A stretch of DNA of 64,000 bases, from the NCBI GenBank assembly GCA_947631035.1, contig CANRJW010000001.1, positions 5,254 through 69,253 of the forward strand, written 5' to 3'. Below the pieces are notes generated by a model that was not told the DNA's origin, ran no database searches, and saw only the letters and a list, made by a program, of their open reading frames with translations. The stretch's first letter is position 1, and each line of letters opens with the position of its first letter. The position numbers and the translations under genes were made by a program. The stretch comes from an uncultured Bacilli bacterium. Lineage in GTDB: Bacteria > Bacillota_I > Bacilli_A > RF39 > UBA660. Shown piece by piece: positions 24,450 through 41,137 of the stretch.

Positions 24450-24451
24450 AT

Positions 24452-27400
24452 CTAAACATTTGTGTCTTTTGCTTCAAAGTCAGTAAGTAATTTCACTTTA
24501 TAGAGTTTGGCATTATTAATGACATAACCATAATCATTTGGTAATTCTTCTCGATCATCTCTTGTAATTTTAGAAATTTTAAATAACGTTTGATCAGCAA
24601 TTCCACTACCAATCCATATTCCTTTGGTTAAATCAGCACCAACTTTAAACCATTCTTCATAAGTAAATGGTTTAATAACATCTGGATTATCAACAATAAC
24701 AAAAGATACTAAACCGATTTGGGCATCTTTTTTGATACACTCTCCAAACCTTTTTTTAATTTCCTCACTCAATTTATTCATAAAAGCATAGAATCCGTAA
24801 ATAAAGCAATACATTTTCTTTTGATTTTGAATGGATTCTAACTCCATATGATTTTGTTCATAAATGGTATAAACTTGGTCAATATAATCAAGGATTTTGG
24901 TAAGATTTTCTTCGATATTTTTAGTAATCAAATTCGTTGTTAAATTTTCATTTGTTAAGGCATGCTCCGAAGCATTAAAGAAATAAAGATTAGCGTACTT
25001 TTCATAACAAATTTGATTTATAAAAGCATTCAGAACTGCATCGACATTTTCTATGTCATAAGATGCAATAAAGTGAACAGCATTTTTAGAGAAGTTATAT
25101 TTTTCAATAGCAAGTGTATCTTTATTAACACCAACTGCAATAGAAAAATCATGAGTTAAAGCACTTTCAATGCTTGCAAAATTAACTGTCTCTGGTAATA
25201 CTGGAATTTTTTTCGCGCGATATTGAGAAGCTTTATTAAATTTTGTACAAATTTCTCTTATATATTCACTAGTATTTTCTTCTTTAATACTTGCTGTTTG
25301 AAATTCATAAATCTTATCTCTTTTGAATAGTCCTCTTCCTTTTATTTTAGCAGGTATCTTACCATGAACATTACCAAGAATACTTGAATAATCATAGTCG
25401 TTGTTTTGTTGTAGAGCATAAATCAAATTAAAGTTTTGCTTTAAACGCATACGAACACTGCTATCGCTCGTTGCTGTAAGAACAAAACAGATTCCATAAC
25501 GAGTAGCTTCTCTTGTAATTGTTGTTAACTCTTCATTCAAATCTTCAAAGTTTTCCAGAAAAGCTTCATAATTGTTCATTACAACGACAATATTTGGAAG
25601 AATCTTACCACTAGAACGTAAATAACTAATATAATTTCCACCAAAACTAGCAAATAATTTCTTACGAGATTGTAATTCTTCTTGAATCATTTTAAATAGA
25701 TTCATTATTTTATCCGTATCACTTAAGTATGCAATATCTCCAACATGTGGACAAGCTTCAAAATTTCGTAATGTCTCTGAACCAAAATCTAATAAATAGA
25801 AATTTAATTCTGCTACGGAATAAGTTGTCATTCCCGAGTAAATAAAGCTTTCCAAAAATTCTTCTTTACCACTATCAGCAATACCATAGATTAAAGCATT
25901 CCCATCTTCAAATAAAGGCATGGTAAGTAAATATTGATTTTGGCTATCTGGGTCATCATATTCTCCAATAATAGGATTTAATATATAATTTTGACGTTTA
26001 AAGTTATATTTGCTTTTTAAATTATCGATATAAATTTTGGCTGGTATTTTTTCTAACCATAATTTTTTAATTTGAATTTTTTCCGTTCTAGCAAGATCGC
26101 TTAAATATTTTACAATGTTAGAAAGTTCCTCACCATTGGCATTCACCACAATTTCTTTTTTGCTGTCTTTACTCATAGTGGTAATGCCAATATTATTAAT
26201 CATACTAACCGAAGTATCCACATCTTTTTTAAACATTTGACTTGGTATATATCTAGCTCCAGCCCAAGCTGATTGTCCTAAAGTAAAGACCTCGTCATAG
26301 CCCACTTGCAAATAAAATCTTCCGGTTTTCTTTAAATAAGCCGCATCGGGTTTTTTTAGGACTTCTTGAGAGTCTCCTGTATCTTGGACTTTTAAGCAAA
26401 TACGAAAACGGGTATTTGACCAAATTTGTTGGTCGACCACACCACCCGGTTTTTGCGTAGCTAGTATTAAATGGACTCCTAAACTACGACCCACACGGGC
26501 AACAGAAATTAATTTATCCATAAATTCCGGTTGTTGTTCTTTTAATTCAGCAAACTCATCACTAATAATGAAGAGATGGGCAATTTGTTCTTTTCCTGGT
26601 AAACGTCCTTCACGCCACAACTTTTGGTATTTATAAATATCAATTGTACTTTCATTGGTCATAACTCTTGCTTCATTAAATTCTCTTTGACGTCTTTTAA
26701 TTTCACTTTCGATAGAAGCAAGAGAACGCGTTAATTCACTTCCATCTAAATTGGTCATAATTCCCGCCAAATGGGGAAGTGTATAAGAATCATTTTGAAA
26801 AGCTAGAGCAAGTCCTCCACCTTTATAGTCAATTAAAATCACTTGCACTTCGTAAGGGCTATAATTCACTGCTAAAGAAAGCACATAAGTAATAATAAAT
26901 TCTGATTTTCCACTACCAGTAGTTCCGGCAATTAAACCATGAGGTCCATGATATTTTTCATGTAAATCCAAACTAATGACTTCTCCACCTTTACCTATTC
27001 CCACAGGAGTTTGTAAAGAAAGCATTGGATTACTTTTTTTCCATCGTTCTAATGAATTTAATTGTTCAACTTTCCCCACTTGATACATTTCTAAGAAATG
27101 ATAGACATCCGGTAGACTACTTTCTGTTTCACTTTTTATCTCGACTTTAATATTAGCAAGTTCTTTACTGCAATTATAAAGTTCGTCTAGAGAAGATAAA
27201 TCCATTTTAAAACTTTGGGCTTGTTCATTTAAAACACTTTTAAAAATAGCACATTCGTCTTGATTTACATGAATAAAGTTTTTACATTCATTAGGACAAG
27301 CAGAAACCCTGTCAACAAGCATAATAATACTAAATCCGTAGTTTTCAGAACTACCTAAAATATTTTTAATTAAATCATAATTATCAATAGATTTAATCGC

Positions 27401-29050
27401 ATCTGTAACAAGAACATAATGAGGAACATGTCTTTCTTTTTCCTTACTTTCACGTCTTTCATGGTAAATTTTATCTAATTGATAAATCATTTCTCTATAT
27501 TCGTCATTGGTAGAACCAAAAAAACGAAAAGTATGATCATTTGACCAACTATGAGGTAAGGTTTTTACATACTCCCATAAGGATTCATTTTCTGAAGAAG
27601 TAAAGGTAACAATTTTTACTTCATCATAACTATAATTACTCATGATTTGTAATAAAATTCGGTCAGCTAATTCTTTTGTTAAAGACGGACTTCCGACAAT
27701 TCCCGTTGCTTTATTCTCATAAAAAGAATACGTAATAGGAACATCTCTTAAAATTCGTTTCGTCTCCCCTAGTTCATGCACTAAATCAAGTAAATTATCT
27801 TCCGTTAGAGAAAAATGTTCTTCAGGGTATTGTACTTCAATCTCCATGGGAATATTGCCAAGTCCTACAGGAAGGTCTAAAAAATCTTCGTCGCCGATTC
27901 TTCTTTGCCACAAACGCACGTTATGAGCTCTTATAATATCAAGACATTCTGAAACACTTAAATTATTGGAAACCAATGAACTTTTTTGTTTATTCATTTC
28001 TATTTCAATTTCTTTTTCTTTTTTGTCTAAGTATTTTTTATAAAGTTTTTGACGTTTCTTCTCCCATCTTTTATCGGAAAATTTTTGATAAACTTTCGTA
28101 AGTGTTGGCCAAAGTAGAGAACTGGCAAGCATAACAATACACATAGCAATAGAGGTTGCAGAGTCACTTACTGTTCTTTCTCCTTTGTTAATGGCACTCA
28201 TTGTACTCATAAGCATCACAACGCTCATCATGGACATCGTAAGCATCGGTCCAACAGTTAAAATTGCTGGCGTTTGATTTTCCTCTTTTTTAGAAGGTGG
28301 TGCATCAATTTTTAAAACAAATTTATTGGTTCTTTCATAAAATCTCGGGGTACGATAAAAATAATCTTCGCCATAATAATCTTCGGTTAATTCTTCATAC
28401 TCTTCATTAAAATTAGAAATTTCTCCGGTACAAGTTGCATATAAAGCGGAAGGAGCCACAAGTCCACCCGGATTGTTTACCAAGAAATAATCAGCACCCT
28501 CCTTGCGCATTAAAATGAGTTTTAACCCAAAAACAAAAATAATATCCCCATACTCAATTTTTTTAATATGACGAACACGCTTTTGATTGACATAAACAAA
28601 ACTATTTTCATCAACTAATTTTAACATATAAGATTTCTCTTGTTTTTCAATAGTAAATAGGGTATTACTTAGACCTGCTAATTGATAATTAATTTTATTG
28701 TTATCCCCATTTCCCACTGAAACACTAGTATCTTTTAACATATTAAATTCTCTAAAAGATTCATCATAGAGTGGTGCACAATAAAGAAAATATTTTTCTT
28801 GTTTATAATTGTTTTTAATAGAAAAGAATTTCCATTCTTCCAATTTTACATAGGGAACCATTACTTCTTGATTATCGATAATAAAGGCTTCACGATTACT
28901 ATAGAGTATCCATCCTTCTTCTGTTGCATCAATATTCATTAAATTGATTTTACGGCCATTTTCAAAGTCACTAATCCAATAACTTCCTCTTCTGTTTTTG
29001 GGAAGTGTAAACACAATCAATTTGTTTTCTTTTATAAGAGTTATTTGCAT
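24452..29050 (-). CDS. essC: Type VII secretion system (T7SSb) FtsK/SpoIIIE-family ATPase EssC/YukB-like
   Basis: 1532 aa; N-terminal FHA-like region, two TM helices (~aa 255-310), three P-loop ATPase modules (GLIAGTTGSGKSEF.., LIYGIADSGKEEF.., third degenerate); the block TPVGIGKGGEVISLDLHEKYHGPHGLIAGTTGSGKSEFIITYVLSLAV is near-identical to YukB/EssC. Confidence 0.9.
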   Translation of the reverse strand: MQITLIKENKLIVFTLPKNRRGSYWISDFENGRKINLMNIDATEEGWILYSNREAFIIDNQEVMVPYVKLEEWKFFSIKNNYKQEKYFLYCAPLYDESFREFNMLKDTSVSVGNGDNNKINYQLAGLSNTLFTIEKQEKSYMLKLVDENSFVYVNQKRVRHIKKIEYGDIIFVFGLKLILMRKEGADYFLVNNPGGLVAPSALYATCTGEISNFNEEYEELTEDYYGEDYFYRTPRFYERTNKFVLKIDAPPSKKEENQTPAILTVGPMLTMSMMSVVMLMSTMSAINKGERTVSDSATSIAMCIVMLASSLLWPTLTKVYQKFSDKRWEKKRQKLYKKYLDKKEKEIEIEMNKQKSSLVSNNLSVSECLDIIRAHNVRLWQRRIGDEDFLDLPVGLGNIPMEIEVQYPEEHFSLTEDNLLDLVHELGETKRILRDVPITYSFYENKATGIVGSPSLTKELADRILLQIMSNYSYDEVKIVTFTSSENESLWEYVKTLPHSWSNDHTFRFFGSTNDEYREMIYQLDKIYHERRESKEKERHVPHYVLVTDAIKSIDNYDLIKNILGSSENYGFSIIMLVDRVSACPNECKNFIHVNQDECAIFKSVLNEQAQSFKMDLSSLDELYNCSKELANIKVEIKSETESSLPDVYHFLEMYQVGKVEQLNSLERWKKSNPMLSLQTPVGIGKGGEVISLDLHEKYHGPHGLIAGTTGSGKSEFIITYVLSLAVNYSPYEVQVILIDYKGGGLALAFQNDSYTLPHLAGIMTNLDGSELTRSLASIESEIKRRQREFNEARVMTNESTIDIYKYQKLWREGRLPGKEQIAHLFIISDEFAELKEQQPEFMDKLISVARVGRSLGVHLILATQKPGGVVDQQIWSNTRFRICLKVQDTGDSQEVLKKPDAAYLKKTGRFYLQVGYDEVFTLGQSAWAGARYIPSQMFKKDVDTSVSMINNIGITTMSKDSKKEIVVNANGEELSNIVKYLSDLARTEKIQIKKLWLEKIPAKIYIDNLKSKYNFKRQNYILNPIIGEYDDPDSQNQYLLTMPLFEDGNALIYGIADSGKEEFLESFIYSGMTTYSVAELNFYLLDFGSETLRNFEACPHVGDIAYLSDTDKIMNLFKMIQEELQSRKKLFASFGGNYISYLRSSGKILPNIVVVMNNYEAFLENFEDLNEELTTITREATRYGICFVLTATSDSSVRMRLKQNFNLIYALQQNNDYDYSSILGNVHGKIPAKIKGRGLFKRDKIYEFQTASIKEENTSEYIREICTKFNKASQYRAKKIPVLPETVNFASIESALTHDFSIAVGVNKDTLAIEKYNFSKNAVHFIASYDIENVDAVLNAFINQICYEKYANLYFFNASEHALTNENLTTNLITKNIEENLTKILDYIDQVYTIYEQNHMELESIQNQKKMYCFIYGFYAFMNKLSEEIKKRFGECIKKDAQIGLVSFVIVDNPDVIKPFTYEEWFKVGADLTKGIWIGSGIADQTLFKISKITRDDREELPNDYGYVINNAKLYKVKLLTDFEAKDTNV

Positions 29051-29064
29051 ATTACTACCCCTTT

Positions 29065-29319
29065 TTAATATAAAATTAATTTTGAGCCATTTCTAATCTT
29101 ACTTTCTTTTACATATTCTTCTTCACTTATTTTTTCTCCAGTTTCTTGGTCATATAAGGAAGAAGAATGAGTATCAATAAAAATATGGTCACTTTCTTCC
29201 TCAATAATTTGGGCAATTAAATTTTTAATTGTTCCAACTTTTTTCGTTGTTGGAATATAAAGGTCAAAACTTTTTTCTAACATAGGAACTGTGACAACAA
29301 CGTATAATTTACTATTCAT
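29065..29319 (-). CDS. esaB: YukD/EsaB-like ubiquitin-fold T7SS protein
   Basis: 84 aa; YVVVTVPM..KSFDLYIP..KKVGTIKNLIAQ...RNGSKLILY parallels YukD (IDITIDLK..FDLRL..VKKVIDIA...NGDRLEIL); 15 nt upstream of essC. Confidence 0.6.
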   Translation of the reverse strand: MNSKLYVVVTVPMLEKSFDLYIPTTKKVGTIKNLIAQIIEEESDHIFIDTHSSSLYDQETGEKISEEEYVKESKIRNGSKLILY

Positions 29320-29555
29320 TATGCCCTCCTAAAAAAACAAAGGAGCAAGACAACAACAAGTATGAAGACAAGCACACCGATTCCACAAAAAACAGCAAAA
29401 CGAATATTCTTTTTTTTGTTTTCTACTGTTGGTTCTATCTCTACTGTTTTATCAATTCCTGGAACATAAGAATGAGCAAGACTTAGTTTTGCTTTACAAT
29501 TGATACAAATTTGGTCCCCAGGATGGGTCTCATAACCACATTTTTCACACTTCAT
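29319..29555 (-). CDS. Small zinc-ribbon (CxxC...CxxC) single-pass membrane protein, T7SS-associated
   Basis: MKCEKCGYETHPGDQICINCKA plus C-terminal TM FAVFCGIGVLVFILVVVLLLCFF; stop overlaps the esaB start. Confidence 0.4.
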   Translation of the reverse strand: MKCEKCGYETHPGDQICINCKAKLSLAHSYVPGIDKTVEIEPTVENKKKNIRFAVFCGIGVLVFILVVVLLLCFFRRA

Positions 29556-29894
29556 GTTATCACCCTTTATTATGTATTTATTGTATCATAAGGGAAAAAG
29601 AAAGAAAAGAAAAACCAAATGAATTCACTTGATTTTTCCTATTTTTCTAAAAGAAAATTTATTCTATTTTATTTACTTCATTTAGAAACTCCATCACTTT
29701 TTAAATATTCTATAAATAGTTCACTTAAAGTAGTTTTATCACATCTTCTAATACCCATTGACCACTTTAATTAAAACCTTATATATTCATGTATTTCTAT
29801 ATAAATATTCCTCCATAAAAATTATAGAATATTTTATTTTTACAAAAATGAATTTGTAAATTTTTGGGCTCTTAAAACTAACCTTTTTTACAAC

Positions 29895-30620
29895 TTAAAC
29901 ATATGAATCAAGTAATTTTTTTAAATCATTTTTCATTTCAGTAATTGTTGAATATCTTATTCCTTCTTTTGAAGATGTTGCCTTTAAAATAATAAAATTG
30001 GCAAACCAAGGCGCATTAGAACTCTTAAAAGAATATTCCTTTTTTAATTGTAATAATTTATTTGTATCAACATCTCCAAAATTTAATTCAGAATATAACT
30101 CATATAACATAACTCCTAAAGCATATATATCAAAATAAACAGAAACTTTATTCAATTTCAACTGCTCTAAAGAACAATATTTTTTAGTACCATATGAAAC
30201 ATACTCACCAATTTTTCGAGTATTAGCATAATCTATTAAATACAATTTTCCATCATTGCGAATCATAATGTTACTAGGATTTAAATCACAATGTACAAAA
30301 CCATCTTTATGCAAAAATTCTAAAATTTTTGCAACCGAATATAGAATTTCAATATTTTTTTTTAAAGAAATACTATTTTTAATTTTATTATAAGATAACC
30401 CATTTATATATTGATAAACAATATATTTTTTATCAATATCATATTTATATATTTTAGGTAAAAAAGAATATTTTTTTATAATAGAATATACTTTAATTTC
30501 ATTTTTCAATTGTGAAATATCCTTTTCTTTTTTTAAAACCTTTATAAAATAATCGTGATTCGTTTCATTTATATGATAAAAAATACCATTTTGATTTTCT
30601 AATTTTTTTAAAATTTCCAC
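29895..30620 (-). CDS. Minimal protein-kinase-like protein (Ser/Thr-kinase fold without a canonical glycine loop); GTG start
   Basis: HCDLNPSNIM (HRDLKPxN catalytic loop), DYA (DFG-like), GTKKYCSLEQ (APE-like), DIYALGVMLYEL (DxWSxG). Confidence 0.55.
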   Translation of the reverse strand: MEILKKLENQNGIFYHINETNHDYFIKVLKKEKDISQLKNEIKVYSIIKKYSFLPKIYKYDIDKKYIVYQYINGLSYNKIKNSISLKKNIEILYSVAKILEFLHKDGFVHCDLNPSNIMIRNDGKLYLIDYANTRKIGEYVSYGTKKYCSLEQLKLNKVSVYFDIYALGVMLYELYSELNFGDVDTNKLLQLKKEYSFKSSNAPWFANFIILKATSSKEGIRYSTITEMKNDLKKLLDSYV

Positions 30621-30625
30621 TTAAC

Positions 30626-30892
30626 TTACCTTTCAATTAAAATTCTATCTTGAGGAGTAGTTGCAACAAACATTTCTGGAGAGATAAGTTCTTTATAAAA
30701 ACTTTCTATTTCATCTTGTTTTACATCTAAGAATTCAAGCATACCTATAACTGTATTTCTTGGAATCTTAAAAAAACAACCTTCAACACTTAATAATTCT
30801 AATAATAAATTCATTTTTTCTTGTTCCTCTTTTGTGTTAATTTTCTTTTTCTTTTCTTCAATTAAATAATCTAATTTTTCTAAAATATTCAT
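30626..30892 (-). CDS. 88-aa acidic protein translationally coupled (ATGA) to the end of the giant toxin gene; candidate immunity or accessory protein
   Basis: Position and overlap only; no motif. Confidence 0.35.
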   Translation of the reverse strand: MNILEKLDYLIEEKKKKINTKEEQEKMNLLLELLSVEGCFFKIPRNTVIGMLEFLDVKQDEIESFYKELISPEMFVATTPQDRILIER

Positions 30893-30894
30893 TT

Positions 30895-33800
30895 TTATCC
30901 TCCTATAACACCAATGCTCTGAATATAATTTTCATAATCCACATGATTATCAAACATTTTTTTGCCATTTTTTTGGTCATATACTATATAATCCGTACCA
31001 TTATCTTTAGATACTGTAATAATACAAAGTGGTATTGTTTTATCATCAGCTTTGATATATTCCGTTGCAGTGCTCACCTTTATATTATCTTGTTTATTAA
31101 ATAAAATATATTTCAAATTGCTAAAATAAACTCGAGCTTCAAATCCATCCATATATTCTGGAATTGGGGTATTTTCAAAATCTTTAATTAAATCAACAGT
31201 ATCAGTATTCTCCGTACTAGGTTTAAATACATTGTTGGCCTTTTCTAAAAGTTTATCAAAATATTCATTTTCTTTAACGCCAATTTTTTTATCCACATTT
31301 GCCCATGTTGTTCCATATTGTGCTAATACAGAATTATCCAAATTTACTAATCTTTTATGTGATAATTTATTCATATATCCATATACAAAACCAGCTGTAG
31401 CAAAACCACATTTGCAATTAACTAAATCATTTGATTTATTGATAGCATCGGTTGCATCAGCAACAATAACGCGATTTTCATCTACTTTAACTTCAACCCA
31501 TTTATGGGAACCCACACTATCACCACCAATAATGGATACATTTTTTTCTTCTATTCCACTAGCAATTAATAACTCGGCATATAACTGACTCCATCCTTTA
31601 CAAATGACATTATTGCTCTCTAAATTTTGAAAGTTAAGATTTTTATTATAAATAGTTGCCTTAATACCTAAATTTTCTTCATTATCATCCATAAAAGTTG
31701 TATCATAATGTACCCGTTTATTCAATTCATAATAAATTTTACGGGATTTTTCTAATATGGACCATTTTGAATCAATTAGTGACAATATTTCGTATTTTAT
31801 GTAATTTAAATTTTCTGTTGTAGTTGAATTGGTTGGATTTGAAATATCCCATTTTTCTGATAATTCTGCGCCTTCTATTTTATGTGCAACCTTATCATAC
31901 CAATCTCTAGCAACAATTTTTGATATTTTTTTCTCTTTTATAAAGTTGGCTAAATAAGAATTATCCCTGAAGTTTTCATAAGTATCATACTCGTATTTAG
32001 AAACTTTTTTATATTTTAGTTTACCTTCCTGTTGAACTAAAACAAAATATTCTTTTGAAGTAAATGCATTTTTTAAATTCCAATCCCCCTCATATATAAT
32101 AGCACTATCGTCTAGATTTCGAACCTTTAATTTTGAACTAGTAATAGTTTCTAAACCAGGATTTACTTTAAGAGCTGTAATTTTCACAGGTAAATCATTT
32201 AAATTTGTAGCCACTGCTCCTACTTCTGGAATACCAGCAAAAAATATTTTTTTACCAAAATTCATTACAGAATTACTATTTTTCAATAATTGACTCGACA
32301 TAATTTTATCAATATCTTTTTCACTAGAAAAATAATATAATCCTTCTTTTAAAATTTTATCATTCAAACCTTTAAAATAATTCGTGTCAGTATATATAAA
32401 TCTATGCATAGTCGAAATTAATTTATTGGACATTGCATTTAATACATTATGGCTTTGATAATTTGTTAATAACACATTCAAGTCAGGTAATTTCTTTTCA
32501 TTATTTAATGGTACTGTTACTTCTTCAGTAATATTTTCATCCGTATTTAAATTTTCTTCATTTGAAATAGTTATTGAATCTACTCGGATATCACTTTTAT
32601 CTTCTTTTAATTCTTCAGCATTATTTTCTTCTAATATGTCTGTAGCTTCATCAGCCTCTAGCACTTCTATTACATTATCATCCAATTTTTTGCTACTGCT
32701 AATAGAATTTTCTGCTATTTTGACATCAGGTCCTAAAGATTCAAAAGTTTTCTTTAACATATCACTGAACTCATCACCGAATATTTCTTTAAGAGTGGTT
32801 AAATATTTCTTATCTGTTAAAATTAAACTCGTATAAGTTGCAAACATCTCATGAAAAGAAATTAAATCACTTCCAATAGGATGATTTTCATAATATTCAG
32901 CACTATGACCATATCGAAGACGATATTTTTCATTTTGATTAAATGAAATCTCCGGATTTTTATAAACACTACAAATAATACTAGATAAATCTATTAAATC
33001 AGGGTATTTTTTAGACATATTCTCATAGGTTAGTTTTGTTATCTTATCGGATACCTCATAAGTAGCAACTTGCTCGCGTAATTCGGCACCACTTATATCT
33101 TTCAAATGTTCTTTTAAAGAAGGATGACGTTCAAATAAATTTTCTTTAATTTGCGTAAAATTTGTTTTATTGTAATTTTGTAATTCTTTAGTAACTACTT
33201 CATCTAATGTTGATACATTATATTGTTTCATGACACTTTTTTGGGCATCATTTAAACATTCATTGCGAGATTTTTCAATTTGTTCTTGTAATGAAATAAT
33301 TTTTTCTGAATTGACATTTTTTATAGCGCGTCCGATTATATTTTGATAATCGTCAGGTAATTTTTCATTTAATACTTTTTCAAAGAAGGCATGTCCCATT
33401 TCATGAAATAAAGCCCTAGAATTTTTCTTATCCGCATTAAGATAAACATTTCCGTTGTTTTCATAACTTCCTTCATTTGTTTCATAAAAATGAATTTGAT
33501 CTTTCATATTTAAAAGTAATTCTCTTATTGCTGTTGCTTCTGTATTGCCTTTTTTGGCAGAATCTAAAAGATAATCACTTACAAGTTTGACAAGTTTTGG
33601 ATCACTTTTTCCATCCTGAGTAAGCGTTTTTATAAAATGGCTTTCTTTCGATTCAAATATTGACTTTATCTTATTTTTGATTTTATCATCAATTTTTAAA
33701 TCCAGTATTGTATTCCCTTTTGAATTTGTTCTAATATTATATTTACTAGTATCCACTTTAGATAATTTTAAAATATTTTCTATAACAGAATAATCTATTT

Positions 33801-36800
33801 TTTTATCCGTTGTTTCAAACGTCATTTCATACATTTTAACGTTTCTTTGTCTTTGTTCTATTCCAAGAGCAAATCGTGCTACTGCCAAATTCGTTTCCTT
33901 TGTGGAAGGTGTTTTTGTTAAATTTTTAATAAAGCCTAATTTTTGCATTTGTCTTAATAACATAAAAGTATTTGCTTGACTTGTTGTTCCATATTTATGA
34001 TTTTTTTCTAATTGTTGGAAAGCATTTAAAGAACGAACCAAAAAATATTCTTGGGGATTATCTGAAAATCTAGATTTTATAAAATCATTATAAGAAAATA
34101 CATTTTGATTTAATTTTATAATTTGTTCCGTTTTACCATCAGCAGTCTGCATTTTAGAATCAGCAGTCATTAAAATACTATCTTTTATATTATTATTATA
34201 AAAACCATCATTCATTAAACTGATACTTTTTAAGGCAAGTGGTACACTTAAAACAGCCCCAATTGGACCAGAAGAAACTAAACTCGTGAAAGCAACAAGA
34301 CCTGCAGTTCCCCCTATCAGTTTTGCTCCTCGAACTGTAGCATTTTTAACTTGCTTAATTTTTAAAGGTTTAGAATCGTTTACTAACTCTAAAGTATTTT
34401 TATTTTCAAATAATGAATTTAAATAACTATCTTTTATCGATTGAACATTTTTTTTGTTATTAACATATTCTTCTATTTTCTTTCCTTCTTCGGTATTTTT
34501 ATAATGATCATATACATCTTTAGAAACTGATTCGTAGACTAACTCATCTTGTTTTTGTTTTAATACAAAATATTCTTTTGAAGCTTCCTGATTTGTCAAG
34601 TCAAATTTTCCATCATAACTAATGGCATGATCATCTAGATTTCGTATTTTTAACTTTGAACTTTCAATAATATCCGTTGTAGGCATAACTTTAACAGCCG
34701 TTGCTGTTAATGGCAAGTAATCCAAATTGGTTGCAAAAGCACCTACCTCTGGAACTCCTGAAAAGAAGAAAGTTTTTGGATTTCCATAAGAGGCATTAAT
34801 ACCGCTTGGCTTAATATAACCACTTTGCAGAATTTGATCTGCTGCACTTGTAAAATGATACAATCCATTCTTTTCTATTCCTTCATTTACACCAACAAAA
34901 TTATTTGTATTTTTGTATACATATTTTTTTAAATTTGACTCTAAAGTAAGTCGTATGGATTGTGGTAATGAAAAATTATTATATTTTAATCCATTTATTT
35001 TATCTTGAGTTTGAACTTTAGGCGTTTCCAATTTTTGTTTGTTCATTTGGGTATTTACTTCACTTATGACTAAATTTGGTGAATTTAAAATTCCACCTGT
35101 AATAGCTCCATAAATAGCACTCTTTTTGGCATTTTCAGTTACTTCTTGTAAATCAATATCTTCCTTAAAAATTCCATATCGTGTTAAGGCATCTACATAT
35201 TCTTGGGTTCCTTCTTCCACCCCTTCTTTTAACATGGATTGAGCAAACGTTTTTAATCCTGTTACATTAACATCACTTAATCCTGGTATTGCTCCTAAAA
35301 ATCTTTCCATTGTAGTTTCTGATACCCCTGATACCACTCCATATAAAACAGAATTTTTTAAATCCTTGCCTTCTACCATAGCACTATGGTAACTGCTACC
35401 TCCAGCACTAATTCCCATACTCACACTACCTACTGCTGGAGTACAAAGAATTCCTAAGGCCATACTTGGTATCATATTACCAATACTTTGTGATATTTCA
35501 TAATTATTATCAAGTATTTTATTGTACTTTTCCGTATTTTGTAAAGCTTCTAGGATATACATAGATTCATATTCATCTTCACTATAAATGCGCGAATCAC
35601 TTGCTAAATTATTTTCAATTCCTAAAAGGGAAGATGCATATGCCCCTACTCCTTTTATAGCATTTGCAAATCCGCCAAAAAAAGATTCTGTTCCATCTCC
35701 TAAACCTTTTCCTGCTACTTTTGCATGGTTTTCTAAAAAACTTGATAATTTCTTGGTAATTTCTTCGTTTGCTTTTTCATCTTCTAAACCATTTAAAAAT
35801 TTTTGGGCTTTTAAATATCCATTCATTTGATTGACATTATTTTTAGTAGCCAATAAATATTCTTCTGCTGCTTCTTCTCCTCTTTTTTCCCATAAATAAT
35901 TATACATTTTTGCTAATTCTGGATTGCTTTTGGAAGCTTTTAATAAACTTTCTAATTCTCCTTTATGTTCGATTGTAATTTGATCACGATTCGCATATTG
36001 GTTTAACGTTCTAAATTGTTCTAATGGACTTATCTCTTTCTTACCGATATCTTTAATACTGGCTTCTTTATAGTTATAATTTTGGTAATCTTCTGTCAAT
36101 GGTAATAATTCATACAAGGAACAACTTTTTAACTCTTTTGTTTTTTCAATAGAAGCTTCTAGTGTTGCTTTATCACTTTTTAGTTCATTTAAACGCTTGC
36201 TAAATTCTTGATAATTGGCAAAATTGGTTGATGCTTTTACAGCATTTGTTAAATCGGATTCACTTTTATTAACCGTTGCATACATCTTTTTGACATCACT
36301 ATCTTTTGCTTGACACAATTTTAATAATTCGGTTGTACTTAATGTTGCTAATTCCTTTTTGGTTATTCCCAGTTCTTTTAATTTAGAATCGGTACAGCCA
36401 AAATTTTTATAATCACTTATAAGTTTATTAATGTCTGCTTCTACCAATCTTTTTTGATTTTGGGCAAGTTCATTTGCTCGAGCAAATTGTTTTTCAAACG
36501 GAAGTAATTTGTTTAATTCTTCATTTACTGTGTCTAAAAGCCCATCATATTCCTCTATTTCTTTTTGATACATTTCTTCATATTCATGAAGTAAACTTTG
36601 AAAGGCATCACTTTCTACATTTTCCATATTGTCATATTGGGTATTATAAGCACCTAAATTCATTTTAAAATTTGCAAAAACAGCATTTAAGTTGTCCATG
36701 CCAAAAGAAGTTTTTTGAATTGAATTCAAATTGGGAATTATTAACGAAGAATGCTCTATAGGAAAAATTTTTTCGTCATATAATTTTAGTTTTGATAAAG

Positions 36801-37116
36801 AATTACGATATTTTCCAACAATACCCCTTGTGCTTGAATCAAATAATCCTTTTTGTCCACTATTACTTAAATTTTCTTCTATAGCCTCTAAATCAAAAGC
36901 ATATTCTCTTAAATACTCTGCAACATTTCCAATATTCTTAGCAATAGTTATATAATTTTTATTTATTTTTCCTAAATAAGTAGATACAGGTGTCCCGCTG
37001 GAACTATACGAATTGGGTATAAAATTTTTTTGTTTATTTTGATAGTAAGTTTGATAGTTTTTCATTGTATTAATATTGGTTGTAATAGCACTAGTGCTGG
37101 CAAATAACTTATCCAT
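30895..37116 (-). CDS. Giant (~2074 aa from ATG 37116) multi-domain polymorphic-toxin candidate in the T7SSb locus: helical LXG-like N-terminal region, glycine-rich PT-TG-like segments, duplicated ~150-aa domain, HExxH zincin motif, C-terminal transglutaminase-like Cys-His-Asp domain
   Basis: Track ORF starts at TTG 37155, but ATG 37116 has an AAGGA RBS. Gly-rich segments FFGGFANAIKGVGAYASS..MGISAGGSSYHSAMVEG and LIGGTAGLVAFTSLVSSGPIGAVLSVP. Internal repeats GLYHFTSAADQIL..FFFSGVPEVGAFATNL..SSKLKIRNLDD vs GLYYFSSEKDIDKI..IFFAGIPEVGAVATNL..SSKLKVRNLDD. HEMGH encoded at 33391-33405. C-terminus CKGWSQLYAELLIASGI ... GSHKWVEVKV ... VIVADATD resembles a transglutaminase/papain-like triad. Confidence 0.6.
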   Translation of the reverse strand: MDKLFASTSAITTNINTMKNYQTYYQNKQKNFIPNSYSSSGTPVSTYLGKINKNYITIAKNIGNVAEYLREYAFDLEAIEENLSNSGQKGLFDSSTRGIVGKYRNSLSKLKLYDEKIFPIEHSSLIIPNLNSIQKTSFGMDNLNAVFANFKMNLGAYNTQYDNMENVESDAFQSLLHEYEEMYQKEIEEYDGLLDTVNEELNKLLPFEKQFARANELAQNQKRLVEADINKLISDYKNFGCTDSKLKELGITKKELATLSTTELLKLCQAKDSDVKKMYATVNKSESDLTNAVKASTNFANYQEFSKRLNELKSDKATLEASIEKTKELKSCSLYELLPLTEDYQNYNYKEASIKDIGKKEISPLEQFRTLNQYANRDQITIEHKGELESLLKASKSNPELAKMYNYLWEKRGEEAAEEYLLATKNNVNQMNGYLKAQKFLNGLEDEKANEEITKKLSSFLENHAKVAGKGLGDGTESFFGGFANAIKGVGAYASSLLGIENNLASDSRIYSEDEYESMYILEALQNTEKYNKILDNNYEISQSIGNMIPSMALGILCTPAVGSVSMGISAGGSSYHSAMVEGKDLKNSVLYGVVSGVSETTMERFLGAIPGLSDVNVTGLKTFAQSMLKEGVEEGTQEYVDALTRYGIFKEDIDLQEVTENAKKSAIYGAITGGILNSPNLVISEVNTQMNKQKLETPKVQTQDKINGLKYNNFSLPQSIRLTLESNLKKYVYKNTNNFVGVNEGIEKNGLYHFTSAADQILQSGYIKPSGINASYGNPKTFFFSGVPEVGAFATNLDYLPLTATAVKVMPTTDIIESSKLKIRNLDDHAISYDGKFDLTNQEASKEYFVLKQKQDELVYESVSKDVYDHYKNTEEGKKIEEYVNNKKNVQSIKDSYLNSLFENKNTLELVNDSKPLKIKQVKNATVRGAKLIGGTAGLVAFTSLVSSGPIGAVLSVPLALKSISLMNDGFYNNNIKDSILMTADSKMQTADGKTEQIIKLNQNVFSYNDFIKSRFSDNPQEYFLVRSLNAFQQLEKNHKYGTTSQANTFMLLRQMQKLGFIKNLTKTPSTKETNLAVARFALGIEQRQRNVKMYEMTFETTDKKIDYSVIENILKLSKVDTSKYNIRTNSKGNTILDLKIDDKIKNKIKSIFESKESHFIKTLTQDGKSDPKLVKLVSDYLLDSAKKGNTEATAIRELLLNMKDQIHFYETNEGSYENNGNVYLNADKKNSRALFHEMGHAFFEKVLNEKLPDDYQNIIGRAIKNVNSEKIISLQEQIEKSRNECLNDAQKSVMKQYNVSTLDEVVTKELQNYNKTNFTQIKENLFERHPSLKEHLKDISGAELREQVATYEVSDKITKLTYENMSKKYPDLIDLSSIICSVYKNPEISFNQNEKYRLRYGHSAEYYENHPIGSDLISFHEMFATYTSLILTDKKYLTTLKEIFGDEFSDMLKKTFESLGPDVKIAENSISSSKKLDDNVIEVLEADEATDILEENNAEELKEDKSDIRVDSITISNEENLNTDENITEEVTVPLNNEKKLPDLNVLLTNYQSHNVLNAMSNKLISTMHRFIYTDTNYFKGLNDKILKEGLYYFSSEKDIDKIMSSQLLKNSNSVMNFGKKIFFAGIPEVGAVATNLNDLPVKITALKVNPGLETITSSKLKVRNLDDSAIIYEGDWNLKNAFTSKEYFVLVQQEGKLKYKKVSKYEYDTYENFRDNSYLANFIKEKKISKIVARDWYDKVAHKIEGAELSEKWDISNPTNSTTTENLNYIKYEILSLIDSKWSILEKSRKIYYELNKRVHYDTTFMDDNEENLGIKATIYNKNLNFQNLESNNVICKGWSQLYAELLIASGIEEKNVSIIGGDSVGSHKWVEVKVDENRVIVADATDAINKSNDLVNCKCGFATAGFVYGYMNKLSHKRLVNLDNSVLAQYGTTWANVDKKIGVKENEYFDKLLEKANNVFKPSTENTDTVDLIKDFENTPIPEYMDGFEARVYFSNLKYILFNKQDNIKVSTATEYIKADDKTIPLCIITVSKDNGTDYIVYDQKNGKKMFDNHVDYENYIQSIGVIGG

Positions 37117-37234: not shown

Positions 37235-39025
37235 GTTACAATTCACAGCTGAAATAAAAAGAAACTAGAAAAAAGAAAGAAATTCTAGTTTTTTAAATGT
37301 TAAAAGAATAGTTAATAAGTAGGTAAAATTTGTTCATAACTATAAGCATTATTTCTAGGTTAAACGGGCAATAAATGGTATAATTATCTTATAAAGTTGG
37401 TGGCAATAATGGCAGTAGAAACAAGTTTAAGTAAATTACAAAAGCAAGTAGATAAATTAGAAAAAGATAATTTAAAATTAAGAGATTTATTGGCAGAAAG
37501 AAAAGCAAAACAAGAACAAGCAGAAAAATCATTAAAATATTATAAAGAGAATATAGAAAAAATAGTAACAGATGCAGTGGAAAAAGCAACCACAGAACTA
37601 ATGAAAGAATTAAATAAAATAAAAGAAGAAAATGAACATTTAAAAAGGATATTAAACCATGATAGTAGTAATACAGGAATACCAACAAGTAAAACGAAAA
37701 TAGGAGAAGAAAAAAGAATACCGAATTCAAGAGAAAAAAGTAATAAATCAAAAGGTGGACAAACAGGACATAAAAAAACGAAGTTAGAAAAATTTAAAGA
37801 TAATGAAATAACAGATACCTATACATATGAAATAGCAAAACCAATCTGTAATGAATGTGGAGGTAAATTAAACTTAATAGGAAAAAGAAGCAAAGATGAT
37901 TTTGATATAGAAATAAGATTAGTAAAAAGAAGAAATGAATTTTGTATATATGAATGTAGTTGTTGTCATAAAGAAATAAAAGTACCAATACCAGATAAAT
38001 TAAAGGAAGAAAATCAATATGGAAGTAATGCTCAAGCACTAGCCATATCACTAGTAAATGAAGGATATGTATCCTTTAAAAGAACCAGAGAGTTAATAAG
38101 TGGCTTTACAGGTGGAGAAATGAATATGAGCGAAGGATACATAGTCAAATTACAAAAGAGATGTTATGAAAAATTAAAAGAATTTGACAATAGTCTTCAC
38201 CAAGAGATATTAAAACAATCCTTATTAAACTGGGATGATACAACAATAAGTATCAACGGAAAGCAATCATGCTTAAGATTTTATGGAAATGAAAATCTAA
38301 GATATTACAAAGCTCATGCAAAGAAAGATAAAGATGGAATAGATGAAGATGGAATACTTAAATATCTAAGTAAAGATACTATGGTAGTACATGATCACAA
38401 TAAAGTAAATTATAATGAAGATTATGACTTTACGAATGCAGAATGTTGTGTACATTTAATACGTGATTTAAGAGAACTAAATGATTGTCTTTCTAGAGAA
38501 TGGATAGAAAATCTCATAAAGTTATTAGTAGATACAAATGACAAAAGAAAAGAATATATAGATAAAAGTATTCTTCAATTTGATAGTGAAGTATCAGATA
38601 AAGTAATAGAAGATTATGACAAAATCATAGAACAAGCCAAAAAAATCAATTTAAAAGATTTCAATCAATATTATGGAAAAGAAGAAAGAACAATGATAAA
38701 GAGGCTTGAAGATTATAAAGAGAATTATCTATTATGGGTACTAAGATTTGATATACCATTTTCAAATAATCTAAGTGAACGAGCATTAAGAGGGAGCAAG
38801 ACAAAAATGAAAGTATCAGGACAGTTTGCAAATATACAAAATGCTGAATACTTCGCAAGAATAAAATCTTATATGGAAACTTGCAAATGTCATAATATTA
38901 ATCCTCACACTGCCTTAGTTCGACTTATAGAAGATAATCCTTATACTTTAGAAGAATTAAAAATAAACTAAGTTTTTGCTTAGTCTATTTTATGTTATTT
39001 TCTTTTCGGGGCTGTGAATAGTAAC
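37235..39025 (+). mobile_element. Intact single-ORF IS66-family insertion sequence (1791 bp) with imperfect terminal inverted repeats and a perfect 8-bp TSD
   Basis: IRL GTTACAATTCACAGCTGAAATAAAAAGAAA vs reverse complement of the right end GTTACTATTCACAGCCCCGAAAAGAAAATAA; flanked by TTTTGTTT on both sides; encodes an IS66-type transposase. Confidence 0.8.
37397..38971 (+). CDS. IS66-family transposase
   Basis: 524 aa; N-terminal leucine zipper/coiled coil; GGQTGHKKTK (IS66 GQPGHKG-like); C-x2-C...C-x2-C zinc-ribbon; WDDTTISINGK DDE region; C-terminal NNLSERALRGSKTKMKVSGQF..ETCKCHNINP matches the IS66 NNxAERALR tail. Confidence 0.85.
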   Translation: MVAIMAVETSLSKLQKQVDKLEKDNLKLRDLLAERKAKQEQAEKSLKYYKENIEKIVTDAVEKATTELMKELNKIKEENEHLKRILNHDSSNTGIPTSKTKIGEEKRIPNSREKSNKSKGGQTGHKKTKLEKFKDNEITDTYTYEIAKPICNECGGKLNLIGKRSKDDFDIEIRLVKRRNEFCIYECSCCHKEIKVPIPDKLKEENQYGSNAQALAISLVNEGYVSFKRTRELISGFTGGEMNMSEGYIVKLQKRCYEKLKEFDNSLHQEILKQSLLNWDDTTISINGKQSCLRFYGNENLRYYKAHAKKDKDGIDEDGILKYLSKDTMVVHDHNKVNYNEDYDFTNAECCVHLIRDLRELNDCLSREWIENLIKLLVDTNDKRKEYIDKSILQFDSEVSDKVIEDYDKIIEQAKKINLKDFNQYYGKEERTMIKRLEDYKENYLLWVLRFDIPFSNNLSERALRGSKTKMKVSGQFANIQNAEYFARIKSYMETCKCHNINPHTALVRLIEDNPYTLEELKIN

Positions 39026-39261
39026 TTTTGTTTTGCTTCTAAACAAGAGCCTTCACAATTTTCATTGTAGCACTTTGTTTCAAAAATTTTTATTTTCTTT
39101 TCTAGTGCTTCTTCAAGAATTTGGCAACGCACTTCATAACTCATAGAAGTCCAATCAAAAGGATATAAATCAGAATCATATTCTCCGACTTTTTCTTCTT
39201 TGTCAAACATTTTTGCATAAGCGGTTTGCATAAAATAGCATAACATTTTATTCTCATTCAT
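38995..39261 (-). CDS. Small Cys-rich protein (88 aa) whose last 9 codons are supplied by the IS66 right end; the ancestral ORF ended ...EAKQNR*
   Basis: Codon-by-codon reading across the IS junction at 39025/39026; seven Cys residues; no family assigned. Confidence 0.4.
   Translation of the reverse strand: MNENKMLCYFMQTAYAKMFDKEEKVGEYDSDLYPFDWTSMSYEVRCQILEEALEKKIKIFETKCYNENCEGSCLEAKQKLLFTAPKRK
39026..39033. repeat. 8-bp target-site duplication TTTTGTTT, right copy
   Basis: See 37227-37234. Confidence 0.8.
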
Positions 39262-39317: not shown

Positions 39318-39812
39318 TCAATTGCTTAATAAACTATCAACCGTTTTTTCTAGAGTTTCGATATTACGATTTTTCGTAGCAACTAAATTATTTTTCGTAT
39401 TAATTTGATTCACTACCCCTTGGTCAAGCACCGTTCTTTCGTCTTCAAAGTGATTTCCATATTCATCGGTATAAGAATAAGTTTCTGTTCTATATTTATG
39501 GCGTTCTAAGCCTGAAATCTCTGTTTTTAAGTTTTTTACTTCTCTTTCCAAAGCCTGAATTTTTATAATATTCTCACAAGCGGTTTTTAAAGTAGTTAAA
39601 TTTTTTTTCAAAGTCGCTACGGAGCCAATTTTAGCACTGGCCATAATTTCACTCGTTTTTACTTGAATCACATTGGTAATGGAAGAATGTAAAACACCGG
39701 GATTTATTAAATTTTCCTTTATGGGATCAAGATTATAATTGGATAATTCACTTAAAGAAGATTCAATCATATTTTTTAAAGATTCTGCTGCAACATTCGA
39801 ATATTTACTCAT
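39318..39812 (-). CDS. Helical/coiled-coil small protein (164 aa), T7SS toxin-associated accessory candidate (Lap/DUF-type)
   Basis: Heptad-rich sequence; position in the pre-toxin gene array. Confidence 0.35.
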   Translation of the reverse strand: MSKYSNVAAESLKNMIESSLSELSNYNLDPIKENLINPGVLHSSITNVIQVKTSEIMASAKIGSVATLKKNLTTLKTACENIIKIQALEREVKNLKTEISGLERHKYRTETYSYTDEYGNHFEDERTVLDQGVVNQINTKNNLVATKNRNIETLEKTVDSLLSN

Positions 39813-39821
39813 AATAATCCT

Positions 39822-40109
39822 CTAAAATTTCATATAACTGCTAATTCCTTGTTCTGTTCTACGATAATTTTCAACTACCGTATCTAAATAGATTTTGATA
39901 TTATAAAATTTAGAATTAACACTTTCCATATTGGATAAAATTTCTTTAACTTGATTATAAAAATAATTCCTCGTTTGTGAATTCCAATTTGCAGAGTTAT
40001 AAATCACTTTATAAGAATCTTCTAATGCATCCATTGTGGTATTTATTTTTTTAAATATTGTATCTAAAATAACGGCATAATTTTCTAATTCATTATAATC
40101 GCAATACAT
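39822..40109 (-). CDS. WXG100-like small helical protein (95 aa)
   Basis: Two predicted helices around the NSANWNSQTRNYF turn; size and context. Confidence 0.4.
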   Translation of the reverse strand: MYCDYNELENYAVILDTIFKKINTTMDALEDSYKVIYNSANWNSQTRNYFYNQVKEILSNMESVNSKFYNIKIYLDTVVENYRRTEQGISSYMKF

Positions 40110-40121
40110 ATTGAATCCCTT

Positions 40122-40424
40122 CTATTCTATATTGACTTCTTTACTAGCATATTGAGTATCTAATGTTTCCTCTGCTTCTACATATCCTTTAACAAATTCA
40201 TTAAAAGAAGTGATTTGGTTTTGAAACATATCCAATTCTTTGATAAAACTATTCATTTTAGAAAAAAAATTAGTGTATTCGTCTTCTTTCCAGATGTCCC
40301 CTATTTCTAATATTGTTTTTTCAATATCTTTTGTATTACTTTCTAAATCTTTAATATAACTATCACATTTATTGGTTTCGCTGTGAAGTGTTTCTATATT
40401 AGCTAGAATTACCATATATTTCAC
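40122..40424 (-). CDS. WXG100-like small helical protein (100 aa)
   Basis: Helix-turn-helix hairpin around IGDIWKEDEYTNFF; size and context. Confidence 0.4.
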   Translation of the reverse strand: MKYMVILANIETLHSETNKCDSYIKDLESNTKDIEKTILEIGDIWKEDEYTNFFSKMNSFIKELDMFQNQITSFNEFVKGYVEAEETLDTQYASKEVNIE

Positions 40425-40492
40425 CCTTTTTTATAAATAAGCTTTTAAAATTTTAAAAGCTTATTTATAAAAACCACTTAAGTGGTTTTTAT

Positions 40493-41137
40493 CTATGCCA
40501 TATCAGCATTTTGGGCATTTTGAGCAGCTTGAGAAATGTTCTTTATACAGATATCTAAACTTTCTAATACACTATCCATATTTGTAGTTAATGTAGTCGT
40601 TAATTCTTCATGGGCACTTCCTGCGGCATCCCCATCCCATAAACCTGAGCCATCATTTAAGCGAGCAATTTCATTTTTTAAACTTTCATATACATCACTT
40701 AATTCTTGTTTAATCGTATTTAAACTCGTACCAATTTCTGAAATCGTGATATAGTCATAAACGACTGCTTCTTGAGCAATGGTACTTGGCGTAATATCTG
40801 AAATGTTTGAATAACTCAAATTCATTGAACTTCCAACATTTGTAGATGTTCCTAAGTTACTAACTTCCAAATTTGCTACATTCTTATTAACAGAATTCAT
40901 TGCTTCTTGAAAAGAAGAACCAAACGCATTAATAAATTTAATCAAAGCTTTATGGGTATCCGTAAAATCTTGATAATTTTGTGCTGCTGCTGCTCCTGTC
41001 CATACATTAGGCTCTGCTAATTTGTCCATTTGTTCCTTAAATTTAGTAGAACAATTTGCTACATTTTCATCTAAATATCTTGCAACTCTATTAGACCATG
41101 TATTAATTTCTATTGGGTCATATCGAAATATTGCCAT
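40493..41137 (-). CDS. Tandem (fused) WXG100/ESAT-6-like protein; first gene of the T7SS operon
   Basis: Two helical-hairpin halves, each with a W-x-G turn followed by an aromatic: VWTGAAAAQNYQDF (aa ~45) and LWDGDAAGSAHEEL (aa ~165); GGAAGG RBS. Confidence 0.55.
   Translation of the reverse strand: MAIFRYDPIEINTWSNRVARYLDENVANCSTKFKEQMDKLAEPNVWTGAAAAQNYQDFTDTHKALIKFINAFGSSFQEAMNSVNKNVANLEVSNLGTSTNVGSSMNLSYSNISDITPSTIAQEAVVYDYITISEIGTSLNTIKQELSDVYESLKNEIARLNDGSGLWDGDAAGSAHEELTTTLTTNMDSVLESLDICIKNISQAAQNAQNADMA

Follow-up and report, generated by a model that had tools for sequence, protein, structure and literature searches.

A 2073-residue multi-module protein as a candidate polymorphic effector of a non-canonical type VII secretion system in an uncultured gut Bacilli bacterium

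The window analysed here, 64,000 nucleotides of a contig from an uncultured gut Bacilli bacterium (assembly GCA_947631035.1, contig CANRJW010000001.1, positions 5,254 to 69,253), carries a long open reading frame (ORF) whose 2073-aa product we consider, with a probability of about 0.7, to be a large multi-enzyme effector and export substrate of a non-canonical type VII secretion system (T7SS) of the EssC, YukD and WXG100-like kind. The protein is best filed as a polymorphic T7SS toxin with a polyvalent-protein-like architecture, in which an ADP-ribosyltransferase (ART)-fold family that lacks a model of its own stands at the cargo junction; it is not categorically new. The initial annotation, made from the sequence alone, had proposed a multi-domain toxin with an LXG-type N-terminus, PT-TG pre-toxin segments and a duplicated adapter domain. 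Its proposal of a multi-module T7SS toxin is strengthened by the T7SS context, the missing signal peptide, the duplication and a transglutaminase-like module, whereas the LXG, PT-TG and adapter labels did not survive. Domain boundaries, the ART fold, conservation, locus context, breakpoints and toxin/immunity co-occurrence were computed directly; T7SS export, the toxicity of each module, the role of a Gly-rich domain (the G domain) and the inactivity of the second ART copy are what we infer.

The gene occupies 30895..37116 on the minus strand and encodes 2073 aa plus the stop codon, with an ATG start at 37116, an AAAGGA Shine-Dalgarno sequence ~9 nt 5′ of it, and a stop codon that ends at 30895. 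The intact 6.2-kb frame reported before is real and is read on the minus strand, 37116→30895; the length of 2074 aa given with it had taken in the stop codon. At least three separately assembled metagenome contigs encode an identical 2073-aa protein, so that an assembly artefact is unlikely to account for the tandem architecture. Hydropathy revealed no N-terminal hydrophobic signal, in agreement with the earlier prediction that a signal peptide is absent, and the only strongly hydrophobic stretches, aa 544-576 and 930-969, are the two Gly-rich segments. A Pfam scan of the whole protein gave a weak Transglut_core match and nothing else, NCBIfam gave no match, and a word-indexed homologue search returned one relative for the whole protein and one for the repeat. 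The window has a G+C content of 30.6%, and a promoter and terminator scan of this AT-rich DNA was uninformative (72 sites vs 79 expected).

The T7SS locus lies among housekeeping genes, bounded by leuS and rpsD. Read from 5′ to 3′, it opens with genes for a 214-aa WXG100-domain protein, two smaller WXG100-like proteins (100 and 95 aa) and a 164-aa helical protein; an 88-aa ORF and, on the opposite strand, an IS66 transposase gene come next, before the 2073-aa ORF. A second 88-aa ORF follows, then genes for a 241-aa kinase, a 78-aa protein with a zinc ribbon and a transmembrane helix, YukD, a 1532-aa EssC and a 178-aa membrane protein. The T7SS genes span 23795-30620 and 39318-41137. The four small helical genes 5′ of the toxin (39318..41137, minus strand), candidates for EsxA and targeting factors, are kept at the orthologous locus L005 and, weakly, at L006 and L007. 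The EssC-type FtsK/SpoIIIE ATPase (24452..29050, minus strand; PF01580, E 9.6e-44) and the YukD/EsaB-like ubiquitin-fold protein (29065..29319, minus strand; PF08817, E 4.7e-5) are both present at L001, L005, L006 and L007. More broadly, T7SS-associated genes occur at 7/7 of the large-relative loci that have enough flanking sequence. Specifically, WXG100-like or unannotated small helical ORFs stand 5′ of the toxin at L005, L006, L007, L012 and L013 and 3′ of it at L001; L007 repeats the order of the window, with toxin, small ORF, kinase and EssC; and DUF4176 genes accompany the relatives at L006, L007, L012 and L013, none being found in this window. Some relatives sit at loci without EssC nearby that do have Lap-like and DUF4176 genes. 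Variants of the T7SS with kinases and minimal gene sets are known (PMC11217815), and the locus in the window could not be assigned to any variant described there.

Comparison with relatives places the constant/variable junction of the protein just after the first of two ART-fold domains (ART1). The nearest relative, P0002 (1308 aa, encoded beside EssC and YukD), has 54% identity over aa 172-902 and is unrelated after that. A genome scan with a 3-sequence alignment found one genome only; L005, the orthologous locus in a GTDB genome, is from a metagenome-assembled genome of an uncultured Bacilli bacterium of rabbit gut, and its 1692-aa orthologue shows 75% identity across aa 1-905, beyond which the two proteins diverge. 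At the nucleotide level, homology between the window and L005 stops at 34402 and resumes at ~29611. Since homology ends right after ART1, this domain is the last of the constant trunk and exchangeable cargo follows it, and it is because the ART domain ends the trunk that it precedes the variable parts. The cargo at L005 (7832-12910) consists of a distant HELGH homologue of the HEMGH module described below, followed by a classical R-S-E ART (YRG…STS…QQE). An unrelated 109-aa ORF follows the L005 toxin gene. Further along (L005 14097-16114), the zinc-ribbon gene occurs twice, as a 5′ fragment and a full copy flanking a 396-aa ORF that has no counterpart at that place in the window, which suggests an insertion with target duplication or a partial gene duplication.

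To judge from their sequences, other relatives show the same modular shuffling. Most have a single ART copy, followed by spacers of variable length (0-300 aa) before the next module, and P0060 (5100 aa) chains an ART domain, the transglutaminase-like module, the zincin and an R-S-E ART. The giant members at L012 (1251-16553, 5100 aa) and L013 (6001-16191, 3396 aa) contain ADPrib_exo_Tox besides the modules seen in the 2073-aa protein. Each is encoded 3′ of three small helical ORFs, one of which, at L013, is a weak WXG100 match, and small ORFs and DUF4176 genes lie 3′ of both giants.

The repeat itself was confirmed by BLASTP self-comparison, in which aa 725-889 matched aa 1566-1730 (46% identity over 167 aa, E 3e-42). 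Hidden Markov model (HMM) envelopes of 724-902 and 1565-1743 (179 aa) are wider than the 753-900 and 1590-1740 first proposed. ART1 (aa 724-902, nt 34411..34947; this and all further segments of the protein are encoded on the minus strand) carries the full signature H754, K781, F785, R825 and D829, and in ART2 (aa 1565-1743, nt 31888..32424) Y1595 replaces the near-invariant His while K, F, R and D are kept. An exhaustive HMMER scan with a three-copy profile against 1.84 billion representatives delineated a family of 188 cluster representatives at E ≤ 1e-3, among which 39 reach E ≤ 1e-30. Over 146 copies, G751, H754 (98%), F785, G787, P789, N797, R825 (100%), D829 (99%) and G836 are near-invariant, and K781 is kept in 82%. 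An AlphaFold2 model of the domain has an ART fold at a predicted local distance difference test (pLDDT) value of 93. Tox-ART-HYD1 (PF15633) is weakly matched by copy 2 (E 0.0025) and by 13/49 relatives, and no other family recurs; the Pfam gathering threshold is not reached (best 18.8 vs 25 bits for copy 2, no match for copy 1), and searches of the repeat-domain profile against PDB sequences gave chance-level matches only. The HYD1 signature H,[RK],[FY],[DE] belongs to the H-Y-[DE] clade of ARTs found in polymorphic toxins (Zhang et al. 2012, PMC3482391). Residues H754, K781, F785 and D829 of ART1, 82-99% conserved over the 146 copies, fit this signature. By this model and these residues, the repeat is an ART-fold domain that falls in the H-Y-[DE] clade and is a distant relative of Tox-ART-HYD1. 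The supposed uncharacterised adapter is on that account a third kind of enzyme-like module, with conserved H/K/F/D. It shares with Tox-ART-HYD1 the fold and the H, K, F, D signature, and differs from it (i) in its sub-threshold scores and the additional invariant N797, R825 and G836, (ii) in ending a trunk instead of being a terminal toxin, with small membrane-anchored stand-alone forms occurring as well, and (iii) in that no Imm-My6CBD-type immunity gene was seen here.

Two settings of the domain are found in the family: the middle of large proteins (600-5100 aa), and a position near the N-terminus of ~60 small stand-alone proteins (190-420 aa; P0055-P0151), in which a hydrophobic helix at the N-terminus precedes the ART-like domain and a charged tail closes the chain. 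Charge distribution suggests that the ART-like domain of the latter faces the cytoplasm. The gene context of these stand-alone proteins (L009-L011), which includes a cohesin-like protein and a trmB-like methyltransferase, gave no clue to function. Two domain copies are present in 4/151 family proteins, namely this protein and three others. The His is lost in only 2/146 copies; each is the second copy of a two-copy protein, and each has H→Y. The other His-less copy is P0108 aa 1150-1327, again the second ART copy. From this pattern we regard ART2 as probably decaying or non-catalytic.

These data also bear on the reading of the repeat as a non-enzymatic adapter or pre-toxin domain that presents or releases the module after it, so that the protein would hold two toxins, the zincin and the transglutaminase-like module, each with its own adapter. 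The location of the domain at the constant/variable junction in the 2073-aa protein, in P0002 and at L005 would suit such a role, as would the tolerance of copy 2 for loss of a near-invariant His, the lack of an immunity gene that co-varies with the domain, and the apparently cytoplasmic, membrane-anchored stand-alone relatives, by which the domain need not be toxic. However, the domain has an ART fold, and over 146 copies the near-invariant residues H, K, F, R, D and N follow the pattern of an active H-Y-[DE] ART, a catalytic type of conservation not expected of a passive linker. The variable spacers of 0-300 aa after the single copy of most relatives likewise indicate that the domain is not the fixed partner of one type of module. 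We therefore think an adapter role unlikely and retain the ART-fold domain as an enzyme-like module of the effector.

In the C-terminal cargo, module M2a (aa 1760-1930, nt 31327..31839) is a transglutaminase-like, papain-fold module with C1839, H1871 and D1887, the three motifs lying where they had been placed at the outset (CKGWS at 1839, SHKWVE at 1870, ADATD at 1886). This region is common to 13 relatives, and all three residues are invariant in the 14-sequence alignment, in C-x2-W, H-x-W-V-E and D-A-T motifs of canonical order and spacing. Although the single sequence remains below the 23-bit cut-off of the Pfam Transglut_core model (PF01841; E 5.4e-4, 20.6 bits), one relative reaches E 5.8e-6, and the M2a profile matches the transglutaminase-like PDB entry 9crn_A (E 2.6e-5) with the triad aligned. 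The invariant triad and this profile match uphold the original proposal of a transglutaminase-like Cys-His-Asp module. Compared with known transglutaminase-like domains (PF01841; PDB 9crn), the module has a family-specific N-terminal helical part and, in addition, a C-terminal companion domain, M2b (aa 1931-2073, nt 30898..31326), which is common to P0035, P0036, P0029 and P0074 and travels with the transglutaminase-like module.

Directly 3′ of the toxin gene lies an 88-aa ORF (30626..30892, minus strand) that is a candidate cognate immunity protein, as had been suspected. Its homologues (35-41% identity) are found directly 3′ of toxins that end in M2a and the companion domain at L006, L007 and L008, and are absent at L001, L005, L012 and L013, whose toxins end differently. 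This distribution, 4/4 loci that end in the module vs 0/4 others, is the signature of a toxin-immunity pair, and the ORF probably encodes the immunity protein of the transglutaminase-like module. The protein has neither a signal peptide nor a transmembrane segment; hence the toxin would act in the recipient cytoplasm, which suggests a cytoplasmic target for the transglutaminase-like module.

The kinase gene next to this ORF (29895..30620, minus strand; Pkinase E 4.5e-22) lies inside the variable cassette. It encodes a soluble Ser/Thr-type protein kinase of 241 aa with catalytic HCD…N and D-Y-A (DFG-like) motifs. Its identity to the kinases at the same position in L005 and L007 is only 33-34%, compared with 72-91% for the flanking genes in L005, and it may co-vary with the toxin cargo. 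Beyond it lies the gene for the 78-aa protein (29319..29555, minus strand), which combines a zinc ribbon (DZR E 8.7e-4) with one transmembrane helix, resembles the TcaA N-terminus (E 7e-6) and is 82-91% identical to its L005 counterparts.

The first cargo begins with M1a (aa 903-1180, nt 33577..34410), at the start of which lies the second of the two hydrophobic, Gly-rich segments (aa 930-969, nt 34210-34329). M1a is homologous to segments of P0065 and P0059 (E 2e-62 and 5e-44) and matched no family in Pfam-type scans. It is followed by M1b (aa 1160-1470, nt 32707..33639), a candidate gluzincin. The HEMGH motif was recovered exactly where it had been reported (aa 1238-1242, nt 33391-33405), and the second motif, FHEMFA, was located at aa 1421-1426. 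In four sequences (the window, L005 and the giant relatives P0060 and P0059) the following are invariant: HExGH, corresponding to H1238-E-M-G-H1242, and closely behind it a Pro and a Tyr; H1404 and Y1408; and F1421-x-E1423-x-F-A. Such a pattern would be expected of a gluzincin with a distal Glu ligand, E1423 being the likely third zinc ligand. The pattern resembles that of lethal-factor-like peptidases, although M1b matched neither a family nor a PDB entry. The word-indexed search found no homologue; against PDB sequences the single sequence gave none, and both the profile and a mini-profile minus the helical insert gave matches at chance level. Insofar as conserved motifs identify a metallopeptidase, M1b is a probable zincin candidate; behind the zincin call of the initial annotation stands the conservation of HExGH and F.E.FA in four sequences, and searches for a matching family or structure gave none. 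Between M1b and ART2 runs an acidic low-complexity linker (aa 1471-1560, nt 32437..32706) for which no homologues were found.

The same linker could be taken to indicate that the chain is an artefact or a decaying fusion, formed by read-through into an orphan ART2 and transglutaminase-like cassette after loss of a stop codon and an immunity gene, and non-functional as a single chain. The degenerate His position of copy 2 and the want of an immunity candidate for the zincin cargo would agree with this. The frame of 6.2 kb is nevertheless intact and identical on several contigs, three other family members are also two-copy proteins, the relatives with 3396 and 5100 aa contain still longer series of modules, and the terminal module keeps both its invariant triad and its immunity gene. 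A defunct fusion is on these grounds extremely improbable, and we treat the 2073-aa protein as one functional effector.

To evaluate the constant trunk, an AlphaFold2 model of aa 1-905 was used (overall pLDDT 75). Its first segment, N1 (aa 1-90, nt 36847..37116), is predicted to form a helix-loop-helix hairpin (helices 2-31 and 43-86, pLDDT 50-74) and is a candidate T7SS targeting domain; it is common to 6 relatives plus L005 and has a weak YwqH-like match (E 0.0017). The following stretch (aa 90-168, nt 36613..36849) is modelled with low confidence (pLDDT <50 for aa 90-165) and is probably a disordered linker. N2 (aa 169-452, nt 35761..36612), a long-helix trunk common to 12 relatives, is modelled as all helical at pLDDT 80-93. 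A helical region had been expected over residues 1-480, and this is consistent with the model for aa 2-86 and from 169 on, with the exception of the probably disordered aa 90-165. An LXG N-terminus, also expected, was not found: no match was obtained with the N-terminal segment at E<=10, with 29 full-length family members at E<=0.5 or with 8 N-terminal segments at E<=1. PT-TG (PF14449), to which the Gly-rich regions had been likened, matched neither the protein nor 28 relatives, even at E 0.5. A search of the N-terminal profile against PDB sequences returned only designed helical bundles. For LXG toxins, small WXG100-like proteins are known as targeting factors and DUF4176 proteins as chaperones; the latter bind the disordered middle region of the toxin (PMC12478183), to which aa 90-168 are analogous in position. 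In view of the WXG100-like trios and DUF4176 genes of its relatives, the protein probably works in the manner of an LXG toxin, although the LXG family model does not detect it.

The G domain (aa 453-715, nt 34972..35760), which is Gly-rich and contains the first Gly-rich segment of the initial annotation (core aa 544-576), was modelled as all-helical over aa 453-692. It is common to 27 relatives, with invariant Gly residues. Homologues occur on three IMG/VR viral contigs (L014-L016), in giant ORFs of 1797, 2036 and >2207 aa, with 24% identity over 267 aa to a viral giant ORF in BLASTP (E 1e-12) and E ~1e-18 with the G-domain HMM. These viral ORFs have an HExxH motif ~170 residues after the G domain (e.g. 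L015 7347-13457) and come after a block of virion structural-like genes; on one contig, the gene that adjoins the giant ORF has a homologue among the virion structural proteins of Bacillus podophages. When isolated, the G segment matched PHROG 2206 (E 3.4e-6), whereas a PHROG scan of 29 full-length relatives gave sporadic matches only, in which phrog_2206 did not recur. A Foldseek search of the trunk model against BFVD retrieved phage MuF-C, LPD and 'PolyVal ART' proteins (E 6e-8 to 4e-3, probability 1.0), and the same 905-aa model gave nothing significant against the PDB. No match was obtained in tblastn searches of G+ART and of M1 against GenBank phages. Our hypothesis is that the G domain interacts with membranes or serves in translocation.

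Such links raise the alternative that the protein is a polyvalent protein of a phage or conjugative element, delivered with DNA so as to subvert the recipient, and merely located near T7SS genes instead of being a T7SS substrate. Polyvalent proteins, which are delivered into the recipient, contain zincin peptidases, H-Y-D ARTs (hubs, sometimes multicopy) and associated kinases (Iyer et al. 2017, PMC5512222), and the ART copies, zincin, papain-fold module, neighbouring kinase and G domain amount to just this repertoire (PMC5512222), in addition to the structural and sequence links to giant phage proteins. Against this, no phage or conjugation genes occur in the window, where the IS66 transposase is the sole mobile-element gene nearby and the locus stands between leuS and rpsD. 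The relatives are consistently found among WXG100, DUF4176, YukD and EssC genes, the pairing of a polymorphic C-terminus with a small downstream ORF that co-varies with it is typical of toxin and immunity genes, and scans of protein and window revealed no MuF or ArdC-N domain. We consider this alternative quite improbable. What the 2073-aa protein has in common with polyvalent proteins is the assembly of several unrelated enzyme domains in one giant chain, together with the G domain and BFVD matches shared with phage; it differs from them by its chromosomal T7SS locus and immunity gene, by the absence of MuF, ArdC-N and DNA-handling domains, and by an ART that is nearer HYD1 than the HYD2/PolyVal clade in HMM comparison.

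The trunk might also be read as an envelope-spanning structural part of the T7SS, substituting for EsaA, with the enzyme modules as accessories. A locus without EsaA, EssA and EssB would leave room for such a part, and the trunk, with its hydrophobic Gly-rich helices, is kept beside EssC in several genomes. Yet the protein has two short hydrophobic stretches only, and no signal peptide or clear transmembrane topology; the C-termini are polymorphic and come with an immunity-like partner; and some relatives are found, as substrates are, at loci with Lap-like and DUF4176 genes and without nearby EssC. A structural function is accordingly very improbable, still more so than a polyvalent one, and export as an effector remains the preferred reading. 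In a separate comparison, a TsdI-like structural protein was rejected, since TsdI has a Sec signal and Ig-like domains, and the S8-PTS toxins were rejected as unrelated.

The IS66-family transposase gene (37397-38971, plus strand) and the upstream 88-aa ORF (38995-39261, minus strand) lie between the WXG-like and 164-aa genes and the toxin, where the orthologous L005 locus has merely an 84-nt gap. With this insertion, the toxin may have lost its coupling to the operon upstream. The upstream ORF is similar to the last 70 residues of P0099, which is 398 aa long and carries an ART-like domain (29% identity; E 1.7e-6, computed against a small database), and it is possible that it is functionally linked to the ART domain, e.g. 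as a partner or antidote. Two mechanical ORFs of 120 and 85 aa (37389-37751 and 37794-38051, minus strand), antisense to IS66, have Leu/Phe/Tyr-rich low-complexity translations and are almost certainly not genes.

Several observations weigh against export of a multi-enzyme toxin. No homologue of EssA, EssB or EsaA was seen in the window, so the argument for export of the 2073-aa protein is one from context only. No LXG (PF04740), WXG100 or PT-TG model matches the protein, and the N-terminal hairpin is modelled with moderate confidence. M1b is without fold or family support, with no match in Pfam, NCBIfam or PHROG. The analysis revealed immunity candidates neither for ART1 nor for the candidate zincin, and the ~60 membrane-anchored stand-alone relatives, in which the ART domain is apparently cytoplasmic, argue against a domain that is indiscriminately toxic. 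Finally, the IS66 transposase gene that now stands between the toxin and the WXG-like genes upstream could affect expression.

In the mechanism that we favour, the N-terminal helical hairpin would dock with the upstream WXG100-like proteins for export. The constant trunk (aa 1-905) comprises the hairpin, the long helices, a G domain that would act at the membrane or in translocation, and the HYD1-like ART domain. The cargo follows in order: the hydrophobic segment with M1a and the candidate gluzincin, the acidic linker, the His-less and probably inactive ART2, and the transglutaminase-like module with its companion domain, against which the 88-aa protein would provide cytoplasmic immunity. On the simplest reading, the tandem itself formed when trunk, ART and first cargo were joined in frame to ART and second cargo at the usual junction; the ART repeat would result from the use of the ART-coding segment as the joint between cassettes.

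A bolder version of this mechanism, which we offer tentatively and think rather unlikely, takes the trunk, with its G domain and HYD1-like ART, as a dedicated device for delivery across the envelope and for activation, one that the ejected polyvalent proteins of phages have as well, and the family as their counterpart in interbacterial warfare. The T7SS would export a polyprotein, the tape-measure-like G domain would carry it across the recipient membrane, and the protein's own zincin or papain-fold peptidases would cut out the effectors. The trunk ART would then be an NAD+-dependent switch or processing module and not a toxin, which would explain both the missing immunity gene and the tolerance of a His-less second copy.

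Among known systems, the LXG toxins of the T7SSb (TelA-TelC of Streptococcus intermedius, YxiD/YobL of Bacillus subtilis) are comparable to the multi-enzyme effector proposed here in that they lack a signal peptide, have a helical N-terminus and a constant N-terminal part, end in a polymorphic C-terminus followed by a small immunity gene, and have EssC, YukD and WXG100-like neighbours, with DUF4176 beside the relatives. They differ in that the present protein has a ~900-aa trunk ending in an ART fold and several enzyme-like modules in place of one, does not match the LXG model, and is encoded at a locus that lacks EssA, EssB and EsaA and has a soluble kinase.

MARTX toxins are similar in that a single secreted chain bears several enzymatic effectors together with peptidase modules by which these could be set free. 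The 2073-aa protein has no MARTX repeats or CPD domain and belongs to another secretion system.

Overall, the analysis links T7SS effectors to the polyvalent proteins of phages through the same construction principle in a T7SS setting, and provides evidence that such effectors can be multi-enzyme chains of 2000-5100 aa. It defines a branch of the ART superfamily (188 clusters), as yet without a model, that marks the constant/variable junction of a toxin family, and a new candidate pair of transglutaminase-like toxin and immunity protein. We know of no account of how T7SS toxins with cytoplasmic targets cross the envelope of the recipient; a trunk domain shared with giant proteins of phage virion modules, which must enter the host, is a concrete and testable candidate for a translocation module. 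The sources of all this are uncultured gut Bacilli with a stripped-down T7SS plus a kinase.

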